Shown here: in pieces, positions 24,434 through 29,367 of the stretch
Position numbering within the stretch: the stretch's first letter is position 1
How the letters are laid out: each line of letters starts with the position of its first letter
Source: Candidatus Zambryskiibacteriota bacterium
Lineage (GTDB): Bacteria > Patescibacteriota > Minisyncoccia > Phycocordibacterales > DATDWN01
Length of the DNA stretch: 42,571 nt
Assembly: GCA_026394815.1 (NCBI GenBank)
Contig: JAPLZX010000022.1
Location: 1-42,571, forward strand
Direction of reading: 5' to 3'
Notes under the pieces: generated by a model
What the model was told of the DNA's origin: nothing
The model's database searches: none
The model's input: only the letters and a program-made list of their open reading frames with translations
Program-made: the position numbers and the translations under genes

Positions 24434-24563
24434 AATCAAAAATTTCTTTCTCGTTGTATCTCTCGTGGAGCACGGATATTTTTCTGCTGAAAAATTCCTC
24501 GAGCTCCCTCCGTCGAGCGTCGCTAGTCTCCACTCGAGACACAACTCAACGAAATTTTTGATT
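24434..24563 (+). repeat. 130-nt compound palindrome: an AT-rich 13-bp stem enclosing a GC-rich ~93-nt hairpin element
   Basis: AATCAAAAATTTC (24434-46) pairs with GAAATTTTTGATT (24551-63). Inside, GTTGT/ACAAC, TCTC/GAGA and GTGGAG/CTCCAC stems enclose two smaller hairpins. A T-rich tail follows. Confidence 0.5.
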
Positions 24564-24638
24564 TTCTATTTGTTTTTTATAAAATATCATTTTGACTTAT
24601 ATTAAATGTTTGTGTTATAACTTGGCAGGAGGTTACTC

Positions 24639-24911
24639 ATGATTTTGTGGTTGATGGTCATCACCCAGATGGTTGTTTGGGCTTGGTTTTCGCTCAAGGG
24701 CGGTAGGTTGAGTGACAAAAAGTTTCTCATTTTTACCGCTGGTATGCTCATCGGGCAATTCGGCACCGGTATCGAAACGTACCAACAGGCCGCCTGGCGA
24801 TCGTTCGTTGTCCAAGTATATTTTTTCATATTCACAGCCCTGGGTGGAATCCAGAGATTCAAGCAAATGAGAAAGGCTTCTTGGCGTATCATGAGAAATG
24901 ACGGTTGGTAA
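24639..24911 (+). CDS. small 3-TM membrane protein, 90 aa, GC-rich
   Basis: TTGACT-17-TTATAA promoter (24592-24620), GGAGG 7 nt upstream of the ATG, and three hydrophobic segments. I prefer it to the antisense ORFs. Confidence 0.55.
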   Translation: MILWLMVITQMVVWAWFSLKGGRLSDKKFLIFTAGMLIGQFGTGIETYQQAAWRSFVVQVYFFIFTALGGIQRFKQMRKASWRIMRNDGW

Positions 24912-25062
24912 CCACTTCCCGTTTACCATGGACAACTTAAAGAGTTTAGTCGTTTCTGTATACTGAAATGGCAGCACCCCCTCTCTGACAACAGTTGAGG
25001 GTGTTTTTTGTTTTAAAAAAACCAGAAAACCCTGCCGACGGGTTTTCTGTTATAATGCCCCT

Positions 25063-26994
25063 ATGCGCATAGTTACGGTTATTCCAATCAGTAAAGGTAT
25101 AAACAAAGACACCCTGACCTATTTCACACAAAAAGATGTGACCGCTGGTTCTATTGTTTCTATTCCCCTACGAAAAAAAATGGCTTTTGGGTTAGTTGTA
25201 GATAGTAAGATTGCTCAAGAAATGAAATCTGAACTGAAAACACTGACATTTAATATTAAAAAAATAGACAATATTGAAACTCGTTCCTTCGTTTTGGGTT
25301 CATTTATAGAAAGTGCACAAAAAATTGCAGATTATAATGCATCTAGTGTCGGGGCTGTTTTATCCGCTCTTATTCCAAAAACAATATTGGAGGGAAGTAA
25401 AAATTTATCATACACACCAAAACCTGCCCGCCCTCCCGAGGAGGGAGCAGGTGGGGAAAAATTAAACAGAGTATTTTATGAAACTGTTCTACTACAATCC
25501 GATGATGATGAGCGTTACGCAACATATAGAGGTCTTATTCGCGAAGAATTTGCAAAAAATCGCAGTGTTTTTTTCTGTTTGCCCGGGGCCGAAGACCTGC
25601 TCAATGCAAAATCTACACTGGAAAAAGGTATAGAAAAATACACATATTTACTTCATTCTAGTTTATCAAAAAAAGAAATCATTTCAGTTTGGCAAAAAGT
25701 TATTTCAGACCCACATCCAGTCCTTATTATTGCTACGGGGTTATTTTTGTCTCTACCTAGGAATGACCTGGGAACTATTATTTTAGAAAAAGAAAGTTCT
25801 CGCGCCTACAAAATGCAAACTAGACCATTCATAGATATTCGTACAGCAGTAGAAATGATAGCTAAACAATTAAACATTCGTTTGGTTTTGGGCGATATGC
25901 TTTTGCGTACTGAAACATTGTGGGAAGAAAAAAATGGTGTTTATACGGCTCTATTACCTCTTAAATTTCGCTCCCTTAGTACAGCAGATTGTGAACTTTT
26001 GGACATGAGAGCCCCGCAAGATATGAAGAAAAAAGAATTTAAAATATTTGATGAAAAGTTAAAAAAACTGATTTGCGAAGCAAAGGAAAATAACGAGCAT
26101 ACTTTTTTATTTTGTGGTCGTAAAGGTCTTTACCCACAAACTGTTTGCAGTGATTGTGGCACAGTAGTTGTTTGTAAGAATTGTAATACACCAGTTGTTT
26201 TATATAGTAAAAAAAATAGCAGTCAAAATAAAAATTTATTTGTCTGTCATCATTGTGGAGAAAGACGTGATGCGGAAGAGCTCTGTGTCCATTGTAAGGG
26301 ATGGCGACTAAATCCGCTTGGAATTGGCGTAGACAGAGTTGTGGAAGAAGTTAACTCAATCGTTAAGGATGCAAATATAATAGTAATAGATAAAGAACAT
26401 ATTTCTACACACAAACAAGCTGTTAAGGCTCGTGATTTATTTTACAAAACCCCTGGTAGTATTATGGTTGGGACAGAAATGGCACTAACATATTTAAATG
26501 ATAAAATTGAAAACGCGGCAGTGGTTTCTTTAGATTCATATTTTTCAATTCCAGATTTTCAAATAAATGAAAAAATATTTCATATTTTACTAACACTTAG
26601 AGCACTTAGCCAAAAACGTTTAATATTTCAAACTCGTCAAGAAAACGCAAAAATGTTTGATTATGCTCTACGTGGAAATCTTATTGATTTTTATCGCGAT
26701 GAGATAGAGGAACGTAAATCTATTGGCTATCCCCCATTTACCACATATATTAAAATAACTATTGAAGGAGAAAGAGATGCTATTAAAAAAATTATGAGTG
26801 AAACAATTGAATTTATGAAACCTTATGATGTTTCAATGTTTGACGCTTTTAACCCTGGAAGTAAATCAAAATATACAATACATGGGTTGATTTCTTTACC
26901 AAAAGGCAAGTGGGTAGACAGGGTTCTTCTTGATAAACTTCGCTCACTCCCTCAGCAATTTATGATTAGGATAGACCCGATAACACTTTTATGA
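25063..26994 (+). CDS. priA: primosomal protein N' (PriA)-like, with degenerate ATPase motifs
   Basis: PriA-like N-terminus and a Cys-rich zinc region (CSDCG..CKNC..CHHCG..CVHC). The Walker A position reads LLQSDDDERY and the DEAH position reads ILEKESS. Confidence 0.8.
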   Translation: MRIVTVIPISKGINKDTLTYFTQKDVTAGSIVSIPLRKKMAFGLVVDSKIAQEMKSELKTLTFNIKKIDNIETRSFVLGSFIESAQKIADYNASSVGAVLSALIPKTILEGSKNLSYTPKPARPPEEGAGGEKLNRVFYETVLLQSDDDERYATYRGLIREEFAKNRSVFFCLPGAEDLLNAKSTLEKGIEKYTYLLHSSLSKKEIISVWQKVISDPHPVLIIATGLFLSLPRNDLGTIILEKESSRAYKMQTRPFIDIRTAVEMIAKQLNIRLVLGDMLLRTETLWEEKNGVYTALLPLKFRSLSTADCELLDMRAPQDMKKKEFKIFDEKLKKLICEAKENNEHTFLFCGRKGLYPQTVCSDCGTVVVCKNCNTPVVLYSKKNSSQNKNLFVCHHCGERRDAEELCVHCKGWRLNPLGIGVDRVVEEVNSIVKDANIIVIDKEHISTHKQAVKARDLFYKTPGSIMVGTEMALTYLNDKIENAAVVSLDSYFSIPDFQINEKIFHILLTLRALSQKRLIFQTRQENAKMFDYALRGNLIDFYRDEIEERKSIGYPPFTTYIKITIEGERDAIKKIMSETIEFMKPYDVSMFDAFNPGSKSKYTIHGLISLPKGKWVDRVLLDKLRSLPQQFMIRIDPITLL

Positions 26995-27012
26995 TAGTTT
27001 AAATACAACAAA

Positions 27013-27120
27013 ATGAATCCCGTACGAAATTTATGCAGTTTGTCTTACGGGAAATATATTAGTAAATTATAGTTAATAATAAATAAAGGTGAAAAAATAA
27101 CTTTTATTTCGTACGGGATG
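27013..27120 (+). repeat. 108-bp MITE-like element, copy 1 (14-bp TIR ATCCCGTACGAAAT)
   Basis: It is an inverted copy of 29097-29203, with about 11 mismatches and 1 indel by hand alignment. Its own ends form a perfect 14-bp inverted repeat. Its last 3 nt are the ATG of def. Confidence 0.6.
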
Positions 27121-27704
27121 AAGAAAATTTTACAAAAAGAAGCCCCAGTATTGCGAGAAATAAGCCAAAATATACCGCTTAATTCCATTCATTCGCCCAA
27201 AATTAAGAAAATTATAAAAGAAATGAAAGTGGCTTTGGCCTCTCAAGATGATGGTGTCGCTTTGGCCGCTATACAAATCGGATACCCACTTCGTATGTTT
27301 GTGGTCTCAAAGAAGGTCTTTGAGATTAGTAAAATAGCCAAAAAAGGTTCTAGTGAGACAGCCAAAGAAGGTATTGCCAAAAACGGTTCTATTGATACAG
27401 CCAAAGAAGGTCTTACTGAGACAACCAAAAAAAATTTAGATGAGACAAATTCAATAACAGATGCTATTTTTATAAACCCTGTGCTTAAAAAAATATCAAT
27501 TTATATGGAAAAGTTAGCCGAGGAAATAAAGCAATAATTCAAGCTTGGGATGAGCACGGCAAAAAATTTGAAAGAGGTGGTGTAGGTCTTTTAGCCCAAA
27601 TATTTCAACATGAAATGGATCATTTGGACGGTATTTTGTTTATAGATAAAGCAAAATATGTAGAAGAAATTCTTCCAGAAAAAAAATCTGTGCAAAAAAT
27701 ATGA
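27118..27704 (+). pseudogene. def: peptide deformylase, frameshifted and lacking the EGCLS metal-binding motif
   Basis: Motif 1 GVALAAIQIG is in frame 1 (to 27537). Motif 3 QHEMDHLDG is in the -1 frame (27492-27704). The frames meet at an A7 run (27487-27493). No EGCLS is present in any frame. The stop overlaps the fmt ATG (ATGA). Confidence 0.7.
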
Positions 27705-28558
27705 AAAAAATAATTTGGGCATTTTTTGGTACTTCCAATTTCTCTGTCATAATACTTGATGAATTAAAAACAAATGGTTTTATTCCTACACTCATTATTA
27801 CAACCGAAGATAAACCGAAAGGCAGAAAACTTATTTTAACACCACCAGAGGTTAAGATTTGGGCAGAAAAAGAAAAGGTTCCTTATATACAACCTAAAAC
27901 CCTAAAAAATCCTGATGTTGTTGAAATTATAAACAAATATGCTCCAAAAGGGTTTGATGTTTTTGTTGTGGCTTCATATGGGAAAATTATTCCACAAAGT
28001 ATTTTAGATATACCAAAATATCAGACTTTAAATGTTCACCCATCATTATTACCAAAGCTTCGCGGAGCTTCACCTATTCAAAATGCCATATTAGGAGAGA
28101 GTGAAACTGGAGTAACTATTATGCGACTTGATGCGGAGATGGACCACGGCCCTATATTAGCTCAAGAAAAAATAGTGCTAACCGAGTGGCCACCTTATGC
28201 CGAAGATTTAGAAAAATTATTGGGGAAAAAAGGGGGAAAACTTCTAGTTGAAACGTTATCAGAATGGGTAGACGGAAAAATAAAAGAGCAAGAGCAAGAA
28301 CATAATCTTGCCACCTATTGTCAAAAGATTCAAAAAACTGATGGAGAATTAAATCTAAATGACAATGTTGAAATTAATTTAAGAAAAATTCGTGCCTATC
28401 ATATTTGGCCTGGAGCTTATTTTTTTGATGATAATAAAAAACGAATCGTTGTAAAAAAAGCTCATATAGAAAATGATGGGCTTATTTTGGATAGAATTGT
28501 GCCTGAAGGTAAAAAAGAAATGGGCTATAAAGATTATTTGAACGGCAAGAAAAGATAA
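27701..28558 (+). CDS. fmt: methionyl-tRNA formyltransferase
   Basis: FFGTSNFS, NVHPSLLPKLRGASPIQ, a C-terminal Fmt domain, and coupling to def. Confidence 0.9.
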   Translation: MKKIIWAFFGTSNFSVIILDELKTNGFIPTLIITTEDKPKGRKLILTPPEVKIWAEKEKVPYIQPKTLKNPDVVEIINKYAPKGFDVFVVASYGKIIPQSILDIPKYQTLNVHPSLLPKLRGASPIQNAILGESETGVTIMRLDAEMDHGPILAQEKIVLTEWPPYAEDLEKLLGKKGGKLLVETLSEWVDGKIKEQEQEHNLATYCQKIQKTDGELNLNDNVEINLRKIRAYHIWPGAYFFDDNKKRIVVKKAHIENDGLILDRIVPEGKKEMGYKDYLNGKKR

Positions 28559-28560
28559 AA

Positions 28561-28725
28561 TTAATTCAAATATTGACCAAAACTAGACTGTGGATATAAA
28601 TTTTCCGCCACAGCTTCAGCTTTTTGCATTATATATAAAAGCCCAATAATTATCATCACACATCCAAATACAAAAGATACTAAAAATGGATTCGCCTTTT
28701 TGTTTAATTGATCAAGATTAATCAT
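28561..28725 (-). CDS. small membrane peptide, 54 aa (MINLDQLNKKANPFLVSFVFGCVMIIIGLLYIMQKAEAVAENLYPQSSFGQYLN); below the ORF-track cutoff
   Basis: Hand translation. Its ATG overlaps the hpf stop (ATGA), AGGAG lies 7 nt upstream, and it has one TM segment. Confidence 0.45.
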   Translation of the reverse strand: MINLDQLNKKANPFLVSFVFGCVMIIIGLLYIMQKAEAVAENLYPQSSFGQYLN

Positions 28726-29099
28726 TTTTTTCTCCTAAAATCAACTCTTTTTAATAAATCTTTAATTCTGGTAGCCCCTTTTCTCCACAGAGTTTTATAT
28801 TTATTTTTTCTAGAAACAATAGCTCGCTCTGATTCATCACGCACAATATCAATTGCAGTATATAAATCTATTTCTTCTGCTACTACATAAATCTGTTTAT
28901 TTCCTGGTTGAACGATATTAATTTCTGCTCTGAATATATCCCCTGTATTATGGTGTTTGGTTGTTCTACCTATTTCTACCTCACACAAAATTTCATTTTT
29001 TGTATCCAAAAATTTTTCAAGTGTGGATATTTTTTTAGAAACATATTCATCTATAGCTGGTGTAATATCAAAATTTTTTGATCTGATTTTAATTTTCAT
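28722..29099 (-). CDS. hpf: ribosome hibernation promoting factor / RaiA family
   Basis: MKIKIRSKNFDITPAIDEYVSKKISTLEKFL is the typical S30AE/HPF N-terminus. 125 aa. Confidence 0.85.
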   Translation of the reverse strand: MKIKIRSKNFDITPAIDEYVSKKISTLEKFLDTKNEILCEVEIGRTTKHHNTGDIFRAEINIVQPGNKQIYVVAEEIDLYTAIDIVRDESERAIVSRKNKYKTLWRKGATRIKDLLKRVDFRRKK

Positions 29100-29203
29100 C
29101 CCGTACGAAATAAAAGTTATTTTTTTGCTTTTATTTTCATTAACTATAACTTACTAATTTACCTCCCGTAAGACAAACTATATAAATTTCGTACGGGATT
29201 CAT
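29097..29203 (-). repeat. 107-bp MITE-like element, copy 2 (inverted relative to copy 1)
   Basis: Its reverse complement aligns end to end with 27013-27120. Its inner end supplies the hpf ATG (29099-29097). Confidence 0.6.
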
Positions 29204-29291
29204 CTCCACTTATTGTAACATCCACAAACAAAAAACTCCAAGTTTAGATAAATTATTGCATTCTTACATATTTTTGTTATCCTTTATATAT

Positions 29292-29367
29292 TCTGCGATA
29301 GCTCAGTCGGTAGAGCGCCTCCCTGTTAAGGAGGATGTCCCAGGTTCGAGCCCTGGTCGCAGAGCCA
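29292..29367 (+). tRNA. tRNA-Asn (anticodon GUU), CCA encoded
   Basis: Hand-folded 76-nt cloverleaf. Acceptor TCTGCGA/TCGCAGA, D arm GCTC..GAGC, anticodon stem CCTCC/GGAGG with loop CTGTTAA, T arm CCAGG-TTCGAGC-CCTGG, then G and CCA. Confidence 0.95.

Follow-up and report, generated by a model that had tools for sequence, protein, structure and literature searches.

At one locus of the window (by which we mean the whole 42,571-nt stretch of DNA analyzed), the genes priA, def, fmt and hpf lie together, and two inverted copies of a short repeat sit at the starts of def and hpf (Table 1). When window positions 27000-27135 (+) were aligned against the reverse complement of 29082-29217, 27013-27122 (+) and 29095-29203 (-) shared ~90% identity, with 10 mismatches and 1 indel. 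The likeness begins at ATGAATCCCG (27013 / 29203) and stops at GGGATGAA (27122 / 29095); the ends are identical over stretches of 22 and ~30 nt, and all differences are confined to the middle. The alignment thus bears out the original prediction, made from the same DNA, that two inverted copies resemble each other end to end and diverge in the middle. A perfect 14-bp inverted repeat, ATCCCGTACGAAAT / ATTTCGTACGGGAT, was likewise found to bound both copies as claimed; the exact 14-mer occurs four times in the whole window, always in these two elements, against a random expectation of ~3e-4. The inner end of each copy does coincide with a start codon, with CGTACGGG immediately preceding the ATG of def (27118) and of hpf (29099, - strand). 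The idea that the element donates this start codon holds for at most the A of the ATG, which may be element-derived; the start region is duplicated instead. Both copies also contain a mid-element UACGGGA that is able to pair with the 5' UCCCGUA.

Table 1. Genes and element features at the priA-def-fmt-hpf locus (window coordinates)
Feature	Position	Strand	Basis or remark
priA (PriA)	25063-26994		Pfam
Upstream direct-repeat copy ATGAA, left	27013-27017	+	Position of ancestral def start codon; collinearity with relatives
Left element copy, type A, 101 nt, TCCCG...CGGGA	27018-27118	+	Last base is the A of the def ATG
Left 5' box ATCCCGTACGAAAT	27017-27030	+	5' strand of helix P1; terminal inverted repeat
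Left mid-box TACGGGA	27046-27052	+	Alternative partner of 5' box (UCCCGUA), competing with P1
Left hairpin B	27083-27107	+	27083-27089 pairs with 27101-27107; stacks directly on 3' box
Left 3' box ATTTCGTACGGGAT	27106-27119	+	3' strand of P1; contains A and U of def start codon
def start codon; downstream ATGAA repeat copy	27118-27120; 27118-27122	+	
def (Pep_deformylase), interrupted in the window	27118-27704	+	Pfam matches 27118-27537 and 27510-27704
fmt (methionyl-tRNA formyltransferase)	27701-28558	+	Pfam; between both copies, outside the element
hpf (S30AE / hibernation factor)	28722-29099	-	Pfam; start codon 29099-29097; downstream ATGAA 29099-29095
Right element copy, type A, 100 nt	29099-29198	-	Alignment, inverted repeat, fold
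Right copy boxes	3' box 29098-29111; 5' box 29186-29199; mid-box 29164-29170	-	
Right hairpin B	29110-29116 / 29128-29134	-	
Upstream direct-repeat copy ATGAA, right	29199-29203	-	Position of ancestral leaderless hpf start
TACAAT, -10 box of pre-existing hpf promoter	29212-29217	-	Sequence inference

Further copies beyond the window were sought by pattern scan, and they exist. The exact pattern CCCGTACGAAA-N60-90-TTTCGTACGGG was found at 30 loci in 32 copies from ~19 genomes, all of them Patescibacteria MAGs, where ~2 would be expected by chance, and a relaxed search (≤2 mismatches per box) raised the total to 39 copies. Seven fetched JBAZZC01 loci held nine copies. The copies are non-coding and 85-117 bp long, and the terminal inverted repeat is present in 39/39 with ≤2 mismatches per box. 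Because the search required exact matches, the invariance of the boxes partly reflects ascertainment, and variant subfamilies with altered yet complementary boxes also occur (TCCCGTTAGAAA / TTTCTAACGGA in L063; TCCCGTAGTAGAAAATGGCAT... in L057 and L061). These variant-box elements sit on start codons too (def in L061, fmt in L063, another gene in L057), with ATGG / ATGGAA repeats, and L061 represents a second, independent insertion at a def start.

Copies at different genes of the same genome were 89-100% identical, with a range of 88-100% among the nine JBAZZC01 copies, and this high within-genome identity is suggestive of recent amplification or homogenization. Thus, L007b and L021 are 100% identical, L013 and L023 (CAZNRH01) reach 97%, and the interior of the left window copy shows 96% identity both to the orthologous L007 copy and to the L021 copy, which lies at another gene. 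The L007 hpf copy is closer to L027 (93%) than to the orthologous window copy. A pattern scan of IMG/VR viral contigs gave 0 matches, BLAST of the element against phages and plasmids returned nothing or AT-rich chance matches, and no transposase or longer element with matching termini was seen in ~750 kb of fetched loci. Rfam gave no family at gathering score across the window, and over the element at E≤10 it gave only chance miRNA-hairpin matches (E ~3-4). Literature searches with the box sequences yielded primer coincidences only, and searches on MITEs in Patescibacteria, on leaderless/SD initiation in CPR and on MITEs at start codons found nothing relevant; the family is apparently undescribed so far.

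We analyzed where the copies lie relative to genes. The ATG of a real ORF (77-721 aa) adjoins the element in 36/39 copies, and the adjoining genes, more than 20 in all, are functionally unrelated, encoding L9, L7/L12, S6, ATP synthase, SSB, TopA, GreA, RecR, pilins and an ABC-transporter binding protein as well as including gdh and alr. A blind search of 967 gene starts for 12-mers that touch the ATG and recur inverted farther upstream gave 32 matches, 31 of which belonged to this element family. The orientation of the interior relative to the gene is constant in 39/39 copies; an apparent interior flip between L004 and L008 turned out on inspection to consist of point mutations, with no inversion. 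Whether by insertion or by survival, the family is thus confined almost entirely to start codons, in a single orientation. A location this nearly exclusive, combined with strict orientation, is unexpected from random transposition and would need targeting or strong selection.

The first bases of the gene recur at the upstream end of the element and covary with the gene, as a target-site duplication would. The repeat is ATGAA in many copies, ATGGA in L023, L025 and L027, ATGTA in L029, ATGCAA in L030, ATGGAA in L008 and TTGA in L002; the direct repeats seen on both sides include TGAA, TGGA, TGTA, TGCAA, TGGAA, TTGA and TGGG, and are 3-6 nt long, depending on the boundary drawn. Direct repeats of such variable length are not normally the product of a single DDE-type enzyme. 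The upstream AUG has been lost in ~1/3 of copies, and matched AUGNA flanks are found in ~2/3.

In relatives with 43-69% Fmt identity, the canonical boxes were present in 0/80 syntenic priA-def-fmt-hpf loci, a count that refers to canonical boxes only and leaves aside the variant-box relatives at def and fmt described above. The junctions in these relatives read priA stop / 14-18 nt / ATG(def) and TATAAT / 6-7 nt / ATG(hpf), and the window hpf junction reads TACAAT / 8 nt / ATGAA / element / ATGAAAATT. Minus the element and one ATGAA, the window is collinear with the def junctions of L032, L033, L035, L036 and L050. Taking the element and one repeat copy out of the window makes it collinear with the relatives, whose loci thus represent empty sites. 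The binding-protein gene, which has a copy in L001, L013 and L020, showed the same empty-site collinearity in 6/6 orthologues, and the mreB site is filled in L005 and empty in the window. By this comparison, def and hpf were hit by two separate insertions in a common ancestor with MAG JBAZZC01, and in each case the opening bases of the gene (ATGAA) now flank the element at either end.

The family shows five of the features by which bacterial MITEs are recognized: it is short and non-coding, has terminal inverted repeats (TIRs) and variable flanking direct repeats, occurs in multiple copies and has empty sites. Among the readings offered by the original prediction, a mobile promoter/5'-UTR cassette captured by two translation genes comes closest. 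The elements are indeed multi-copy, TIR-bounded, flanked by direct repeats and absent at orthologous sites; however, an element-borne promoter is at best putative, and the link to translation genes is incidental, as topA, ssb, recR, gdh, alr and pilin genes carry the element as well.

Single-sequence folds of the element gave z-scores of -3.7 to -7.9. The consensus of type A, the window subtype, comprises helix P1 (14 bp) and hairpin B (7 bp, two pairs with A-U / G.U / G-C covariation), and in type B P1 is followed by a 3-nt / 1-nt asymmetric bulge and then a 6-bp P2 with two compensatory pairs, which makes the closing helix 20 bp long and interrupted. The alternative pairing of the 5' box with the mid-box, also put forward in the original prediction, is real, with 98% of cells paired in 22 copies and with all pair-keeping changes being G.U/U.G. 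All helices together hold 27 G.U/U.G cells vs. 4 A.C/C.A cells, a ratio that marks the sense strand, and this bias, along with the compensatory changes, points to selection on the sense RNA. The covariation evidence for type A is suggestive, the observed score having been reached in 5/500 shuffles with copies that are related to one another. For the two window copies, the P1 state was computed at -26.4 and -28.8 kcal/mol and the mid-box state at -16.3 and -16.9, and the nascent mid-box hairpin at -9.9 kcal/mol. Hammerhead-like GAAA / GAUGA motifs were discarded, as both lie inside the P1 helix and Rfam is silent.

We also examined the promoter context of the insertions. In the window, TAnnnT hexamers peak 6-7 nt before the ATG (13/38 genes), and the host genome appears to be largely leaderless, with the -10 box 6-7 nt upstream of the ATG. 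In 14/39 elements, the upstream repeat copy is preceded at a distance of 6-9 nt by a -10-like hexamer, and a host promoter there would start transcription at the 5' edge of the element. For hpf, transcription driven by TACAAT would begin at the upstream ATGAA or right beside it, making the whole element the 5' leader. Runs that resemble a Shine-Dalgarno (SD) sequence (GGAG, AAGGAA) before the upstream ATGAA were rejected as such; since they fall between the -10 box and the predicted transcription start, they are probably not transcribed. Within the element, AAAGGTGA was rejected as an SD sequence because it is 26-33 nt away from the ATG, makes up the 5' arm of hairpin B and varies as a stem does; its position reads AAAAGCAA in the right-hand (hpf) copy, which has no SD-like sequence at all.

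The promoter-like boxes listed in the original prediction are present, in the left copy as TTGTCT (27040-27045), TAAATT (27063-27068) and TATAGT (27068-27073), but these sense-strand boxes face the adjacent gene, into the 2-kb segment, and not outward as had been claimed. They score 8/12, under the threshold of the promoter scanner, and a better match in this copy is antisense and outward-facing (TTCACC-16-TATAAT, 27093->27066). An interior -10-like hexamer is good only in some subfamilies. A -10 box suitably placed for transcription from the downstream ATG occurs in L030 alone (TGATAGAAT / 10 nt / ATG); type A reads TTTTAT and type B TCCTAT at that position, both without the essential A at position 2. 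An ECF-sigma-like AAC...CGT was set aside for its spacing of just 8 nt.

We consider it likely that the two repeats are copies of a MITE-like, TIR-bounded non-coding element restricted to Patescibacteria/CPR, which inserted at the starts of def and hpf and acts there as a portable structured leader. In this lineage, transcription appears usually to begin at the A of the ATG (leaderless), or the gene lies a few bases past an upstream stop codon. Insertion would then make the old start position the 5' limit of a leader of ~105 nt, with the real ORF opening at the regenerated ATG at its 3' edge. In the sense RNA, the terminal boxes are predicted to pair (P1, 14 bp), closing the leader and burying the A and U of the start codon. 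In type A, the mid-box may capture the 5' box first, leaving the start codon open beside a small conserved hairpin. The element may thereby gate, in cis, the translation and/or the mRNA stability or processing of whatever gene carries it.

An RNA-level variant of this explanation concerns mechanism and not origin: the closing helix (14-20 bp) might be cut by RNase III or another nuclease, or shunted by ribosomes, so that an AUG would be restored at or near the 5' end or next to the upstream stop and leaderless or coupled initiation would continue. In its favor are the helix joining both flanks exactly at the duplicated AUGNA, type B with its 20-bp interrupted helix, operon-internal copies in which the upstream stop codon lies 0-23 nt from P1, and the hpf copy that lacks an SD-like sequence; RNase III also excises rRNA intervening sequences that are comparable in size and shape. 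CPR genomes moreover keep RNase III, RNase J and YchF (PMC12641178). We nevertheless regard it as unlikely on balance, as a symmetric helix leaves the strict interior orientation unexplained, the loss of the upstream AUG in so many copies means that AUG-to-AUG transfer is not general, and the position of cleavage is not predictable. A more specific and rather doubtful proposal is that of a mobile "mRNA intervening sequence" adapted to leaderless translation and targeted to translation/transcription start points. Such an insertion would be harmless, since the closing helix would hold the old initiation point (a 5'-terminal AUG or the upstream stop codon) beside the regenerated identical AUGNA; the ribosome would be handed across the helix base, or the helix would be cut and a leaderless mRNA restored, and the mid-box switch would make this hand-over or cutting step conditional.

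As to origin, spread might have required no transposase: copies would be passed between gene starts through recombination or template switching, with the shared ATGAA microhomology and the boxes as points of exchange, and gene conversion would follow. The first base of the repeat is always the A of the ATG, its length varies, within-genome homogeneity is high, and there are replacement-like patterns such as that of the L007 hpf copy and L027; yet where the repeat varies (ATGTA, ATGCAA, TTGA, TGGG), it agrees with the recipient gene and not with a donor, so that target duplication fits better, and the same termini recur in very distant genomes. This route is therefore improbable. Little probability also attaches to a pair of DNA operators, in which the boxes would bind a regulator or domesticated transposase that loops or represses a promoter between them and so controls highly expressed genes as one genome-wide regulon. 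Distant genomes share an invariant box sequence (in part through ascertainment), its core CGTACG is palindromic, and promoter-like hexamers lie between the boxes on both strands in the window subfamily. However, the preponderance of G.U over A.C (27 to 4) and the compensatory changes fit a sense-strand RNA helix, subfamilies with different but complementary boxes exist, the interior promoter is not conserved across subtypes, and a box touching the ATG would make an unusual operator for a leaderless promoter. A riboswitch or conserved cis-regulatory leader specific to def-fmt and hpf would explain why both carry the same leader with mutually exclusive pairings, but it is extremely unlikely, and as a gene-specific element refuted, given that the canonical boxes are absent from all 80 syntenic loci, that the element stands before >20 unrelated genes, that Rfam is silent even at E≤10, and that no ligand-pocket-like conserved core extends beyond the helices. 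Co-regulation of def-fmt and hpf, as the original prediction had suggested, may hold as a side effect, but the syntenic loci show no conserved regulon. Its further suggestion, that recombination between the inverted copies flips the 2-kb def-fmt-hpf segment, is unsupported and has scarcely any chance of being correct. Inverted copies ~90% identical and 2 kb apart, with their long identical ends, could in principle recombine; the window, the sister genome (L007) and dozens of element-free relatives, however, all share the order priA>def>fmt><hpf and its orientation, flipped interiors number 0/39, and the arrangement is simply that of two convergent genes each hit at its start.

We compared the element with known systems. 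Correia elements, which generate a TA duplication, are not known for any link to start codons. By contrast, the CPR element abuts the ATG in 36/39 copies, duplicates the start-codon region and keeps a fixed orientation; it also has other termini and another host phylum, with no evident IHF site. A Correia element was accordingly rejected as an identification: the termini here are TCCCGTACGAAAT and not the 26-bp Correia repeat, the duplication holds the start codon, and the hosts are Patescibacteria. Correia elements (CREE / NEMIS) of Neisseria resemble the present family in being ~100-150 bp long, TIR-bounded, multi-copy and beside genes; they are co-transcribed, form a long hairpin, can give rise to promoters at either or both ends, and are bound by RNase III and cleaved or protected, which alters adjacent gene expression (PMC2649163). 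Other MITEs (ERIC/IRU, RUP, BOX, MITEAba12 and others) are likewise small, with TIRs, direct repeats, patchy distribution and effects on mRNA when transcribed, but unlike the CPR element none is described as start-codon-associated, and the term "start codon" does not occur in a 2024 review of prokaryotic MITEs (PMC10969869). Rickettsia palindromic elements (RPE) are mobile and settle in essential genes, where insertion is tolerated (PMC10969869), and so are also palindromic mobile elements in positions normally barred to insertions. RPEs, however, lie in frame inside ORFs and are translated, whereas the CPR element lies outside the ORF, between the two copies of a duplicated start codon.

Intervening sequences (IVSs) of 23S/16S rRNA are sporadic insertions of ~100 nt whose ends form a long helix and which RNase III excises, the RNA staying functional. 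The CPR element is likewise a ~100-nt insert closed by a long end-to-end helix, but IVSs are known in rRNA and not at mRNA start codons. In translational bypass (phage T4 gene 60; mitochondrial byp), a structured insert separates identical take-off and landing codons, and byp is mobile. The CPR element has comparable matched flanks and differs from bypass and ribosome shunting in that its matched codons are the initiation codon itself, the upstream one being often lost. Invertons share inverted repeats around a short promoter-containing segment upstream of a gene, but the CPR element has one interior orientation (39/39), with no recombinase seen nearby. Integron attC sites (RYYYAAC / GTTRRRY core sites) were rejected, as the boxes here read TCCCGTACG... 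and the neighbors are core genes in conserved synteny, not cassettes; a known Rfam riboswitch or cis-regulatory RNA was rejected in the absence of a covariance-model match and of an association with any single gene family or pathway.

CPR/Patescibacteria make up a large, almost uncultured share of bacterial diversity in which control of gene expression is little known. Most genes in these genomes appear to lack both a leader and an SD sequence, and here essential, highly expressed genes (L7/L12, S6, ATP synthase, SSB, topoisomerase I) stay intact with a mobile element sitting on their start codon. Should the element truly choose start sites as its target, this preference would be a novel one among bacterial transposable elements. 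How an AUG that is internal, lacks an SD sequence and lies at the base of a 14-20-bp helix is translated is a testable question, and the ~100-nt cassettes, with their subfamilies and compensatory variants, form a natural test set for it. For annotation, there is a risk that the repeats are mistaken for promoters or riboswitches and that the duplicated ATG misleads start-codon calling. A leader peptide (MNPVRN...) read from the upstream ATG was rejected, as its frame differs between copies (ATGCAA+TCCCG vs. ATGAA+TCCCG) and the peptide is not conserved beyond the box; the frame opened there varies in sequence and closes within 14-25 codons.

Pairwise alignment of 27013-27122 (+) with the reverse complement of 29095-29203 covered both copies in full, at 10 mismatches and 1 indel, the ends being identical and the mismatches confined to the middle, as the original prediction of a ~108-bp inverted similarity had it. 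The perfect 14-bp inverted repeat (ATCCCGTACGAAAT / ATTTCGTACGGGAT) said to bound each copy was likewise present in both, and all four occurrences of this 14-mer in the window lie within the two copies. In each case, CGTACGGG immediately precedes the start ATG, of def on one side and of hpf on the other, and the priA stop codon lies 18 nt upstream of the def-side upstream repeat copy. The promoter-like boxes of the original prediction do exist in the sense strand, but they are weak (8/12) and, rather than facing outward, point at the adjacent gene. On the antisense strand of the left copy, a promoter scan gave a better site (TTCACC-16-TATAAT, 27093->27066), which does face outward and would transcribe toward the priA end; this site is common to most copies in the sister MAG JBAZZC01, the hpf copy being weaker (TATAAC).

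Coordinates of the features in the window and of variant elements in other loci
Feature	Position	Strand	Remark
priA	25063-26994		Pfam
def	27118-27537 plus 27510-27704	+	Pfam; two pieces
fmt	27701-28558	+	Pfam
hpf	28722-29099	-	Pfam
tRNA-Asn	29292-29367
Upstream ATGAA copy, def	27013-27017	+
Upstream ATGAA copy, hpf	29199-29203	-
-10-like hexamer, hpf	29212-29217	-	TACAAT
Hairpin B, left copy	27083-27089 / 27101-27107		beside the 3' box
Example starts	3264, 9963, 13801, 19565, 25063, 32226, 34300		TATAAT-like box, without SD
Clear GGAG-type SD genes	28725	-
Clear GGAG-type SD genes	32413, 34673, 24639	+
Variant, locus L063	359-477		TCCCGTTAGAAA... / ...TTTCTAACGGA; between def and fmt
Variant, locus L061	3335-3475		TCCCGTAGTAGAAAATGGCAT... 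/ ...ATGCCATTTTTCACTACGGG
Variant, locus L057	~3285 on reverse complement	-	TCCCGTAGTAGAAAATGGCAT... / ...ATGCCATTTTTCACTACGGG

We scanned 185,579 genomes, one per species, for the exact pattern CCCGTACGAAA-N60-90-TTTCGTACGGG. This returned 32 copies in 30 loci, against a chance expectation of roughly 2, and all matches were Patescibacteria/CPR MAGs (labelled Paceibacterota, Nomurabacteria, Yanofskybacteria or 'Saccharibacteria'). JBAZZC01 carries the def...hpf pair as in the window (locus L007), together with further copies at other loci. With as many as 2 mismatches tolerated in each box, the count in the fetched DNA rose to 39, and 36 of these copies have the 3' box directly against the ATG of an ORF 77-721 aa in length. 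When 967 gene starts were scanned blind for any 12-mer touching the ATG that recurs inverted 40-150 nt upstream, 31 of the 32 matches belonged to this family. By Pfam, the downstream genes encode ribosomal proteins L9, L7/L12 and S6, ATP synthase beta and b, SSB (twice), topoisomerase I, GreA, RecR, TsaD, glutamate dehydrogenase, alanine racemase, RfbC, Hsp20, FKBP, a CsoR-type repressor, a tRNA-synthetase-like protein, a T2SSE ATPase, a prepilin peptidase, T4SS pilins and an ABC-transporter binding protein (three times); the family is not specific to def, hpf or translation genes. Element interiors fall into types with the boxes alone in common, i.e., type A (~100 nt; the window's type, with the mid-box TACGGGA and a hairpin beside the 3' box), type B (~113 nt, with an extended stem) and several singletons, and their orientation relative to the gene is constant.

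The flanks argue for insertion. The 5' flank duplicates the first bases of the ORF and varies in step: ATGAA / ATGAA (the window and many other loci), ATGGA / ATGGA (L023, L025, L027), ATGTA / ATGTA (L029), ATGCAA / ATGCAA (L030), ATGGAA / ATGGAA (L008), TTGA / TTGA (L002) and TGGG / TGGG (L005, before mreB). A metagenome scan with Fmt retrieved 80 loci in priA > def > fmt >< hpf synteny (43-69% Fmt identity), and none of the 80 had the canonical boxes. In these relatives, 14-18 nt separate the priA stop from ATG(def), and 6-7 nt separate TATAAT from ATG(hpf); the window, minus the element and one ATGAA, is collinear with both, and the upstream ATGAA copies therefore mark the ancestral start codons. 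The binding-protein gene that is filled in L001, L013 and L020 gave the same result: in six orthologues (72-80% identity), sampled without bias, all six sites were empty, the filled site being equal to the empty site plus element plus repeat.

Copies at different genes within one genome are 89-100% identical (L007b = L021; L012a / L012b, 99%; L013 / L023, 97%), and the JBAZZC01 hpf copy is closer to another JBAZZC01 copy than to the orthologous hpf copy of the window. Such near-identity indicates recent amplification or homogenisation. MITEs are recognized by short size, terminal inverted repeats, variable flanking direct repeats, near-identical multiple copies and empty sites. The element shows each of these features, and there is good support for identifying it as a MITE-like insertion. 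Among the three readings originally proposed, a mobile promoter/5'-UTR cassette was thus essentially right as to the mobile leader, but not as to translation genes, given the unrelated genes downstream; as for its promoter part, an element-borne -10 is convincing in some subfamilies only. A dedicated def-fmt/hpf leader is contradicted by the box-free syntenic loci and by the copies before unrelated genes, and no evidence of inversion of the 2-kb segment was found.

Why the element sits at start codons has two possible answers. Random insertion at a 4-5-nt, TGNA-like target, followed by purging of lethal events, would leave many neutral intergenic copies; at most three were found. The location therefore reflects either insertion directed at start sites or survival of only those copies that are useful where they sit. 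Either fits the repeated independent hits (on ssb, on def and on the binding-protein gene) and the bias toward highly expressed genes. The direct repeat is 3-6 nt long, depending on where the boundary is drawn, and its first base is always the A of the ATG, which a simple staggered cut would not usually produce. Neither among the annotated ORFs of the window nor beside the copies was a transposase seen. In a Paceibacteria contig lacking the element, a methyltransferase / binding-protein operon has an IS200/IS605-type Y1 transposase gene (PF01797; L115:1-611) immediately upstream; this gene is probably unrelated to the family.

We also considered the genomic setting into which the element inserts. 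TAnnnT hexamers, mostly TATAAT, TAGAAT and TATGAT and frequently with an upstream TG, occur 6-7 nt before the ATG in 13/38 window genes, as against ~1-2 at other offsets, and SD-led genes are few. Given such crowding of -10-like boxes against the ATG and the scarcity of SD genes, the genome appears largely leaderless. In most genes that come first in an operon, the ATG is preceded at 6-8 nt by a TATAAT-like box, often with TGn, and a Shine-Dalgarno sequence is lacking. In 14/39 elements, a -10-like hexamer precedes the upstream repeat copy by 6-9 nt; in the remainder, that copy begins 0-23 nt after the preceding gene's stop codon. The element therefore occupies a former initiation site, and all of it should be transcribed as a ~105-nt leader. 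Separately, a GC-richer stretch at 24500-25060 (0.42-0.44 vs ~0.32), without a match in Rfam, contains a membrane-protein ORF of 90 aa led by an SD (24639-24911) and, after it, a clear terminator hairpin (~24970-25010).

In single-sequence folds, a helix between the 5' and 3' boxes (P1) closes the element, with z-scores of -3.7 to -7.9. The RNAalifold consensus of 22 type A copies comprised P1 (12-14 bp) and a 7-bp hairpin B stacked on the 3' box, in which two pairs vary across A-U, G.U and G-C. In type B, a conserved interruption, asymmetric in having 3 nt on the 5' side but 1 nt on the 3' side, separates a 14-bp P1 from a 6-bp P2, and two of the P2 pairs are compensatory. The predicted alternative pairing of the mid-box with the 5' box held up, with 98% of cells paired; the pair-keeping changes there were all G.U or U.G. 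Across all helices combined, 27 cells were G.U/U.G vs 4 A.C/C.A, an asymmetry expected only if the sense-strand RNA folds; as the copies are related, it is supportive rather than conclusive. P1 takes in the start codon's A and U. For the two window copies, the P1 state was computed at -26.4 and -28.8 kcal/mol and the mid-box state at -16.3 and -16.9 kcal/mol, while the first 45 nt alone form the mid-box hairpin (~-10 kcal/mol). These energetics fit a kinetic, co-transcriptional switch, and we infer from the predicted folds that the element may act as a structured, switchable leader.

How the downstream AUG would then be used allows several candidate mechanisms. No SD-like sequence was found in the hpf copy, and AAAGGTGA of the def copy belongs to hairpin B. 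The mid-box could capture the 5' box and free the AUG; P1 might be opened by ribosomes initiating at the upstream AUG or terminating at the upstream stop; RNase III, which is retained in CPR genomes (PMC12641178), could cleave the long helix to give a near-leaderless mRNA; or the ribosome might be handed over across the helix base. The upstream ATG has decayed in ~1/3 of copies and is therefore not generally required. rRNA intervening sequences and the gene-60 / byp bypass elements offer possible analogies for these mechanisms.

The closest functional analogue is the Correia elements of Neisseria, which are small TIR elements beside genes that can form promoters and are bound by RNase III, which either cleaves or protects them (PMC2649163); sequence, target and start-codon position all differ from those of the CPR element. 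A precedent for toleration of palindromic elements in essential genes comes from those of Rickettsia, which, however, insert in frame within ORFs. Rfam holds no family for the element, no integron-type core sites were found at it, and a 2024 review of prokaryotic MITEs does not use the term 'start codon' (PMC10969869). The literature searched gave no earlier account of a MITE associated with start codons.

The exact-pattern search understates the breadth of the family. A permissive scan found relatives with altered yet complementary boxes on start codons, with ATGG / ATGGAA repeats; the L061 variant is an independent insertion at a def start. At L088:5515-5570, a 50-nt GC-rich hairpin with different but complementary boxes (ATTCCCGCGAAGGC.../...GCCTTCGCGGGAAT) abuts an ATG. 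Before rpsF (S6) in L026 (1235-1343, -), the box pair is mismatched (5' TCCCGTTAGAAAT with 3' ATTTCGTACGGGA) and an internal extended -10, TGGTATAAG, lies ~38 nt before the ATG; the same operon has a second, intact copy ahead of ssb. L004:4672-4783 and L008:697-806 are orthologous copies. In L004, 21 nt are absent between host promoter and element, so that the -10 box (GATATA+AT) borrows the element's first two bases and transcription would start within the 5' box; this copy has an A.C mismatch in P1.

Finally, def is broken in the window (27118-27704, lesion near 27500-27512). Judged against the intact Def (179 aa) of the sister MAG (L007) and those of L033 / L036, ~41 nt are missing. This deletion shifts the frame and takes out KEKKVVEEGCLSVRY, in which lies the metal-binding motif EGCLS (Pfam positions 92-103); the gene is either a pseudogene or an assembly error. 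Downstream, fmt is intact. Within def, three tandem 39-nt units (27334-27435) code for IAKKGSSETAKEG-like repeats, in a region that is a loop, short and variable in relatives.
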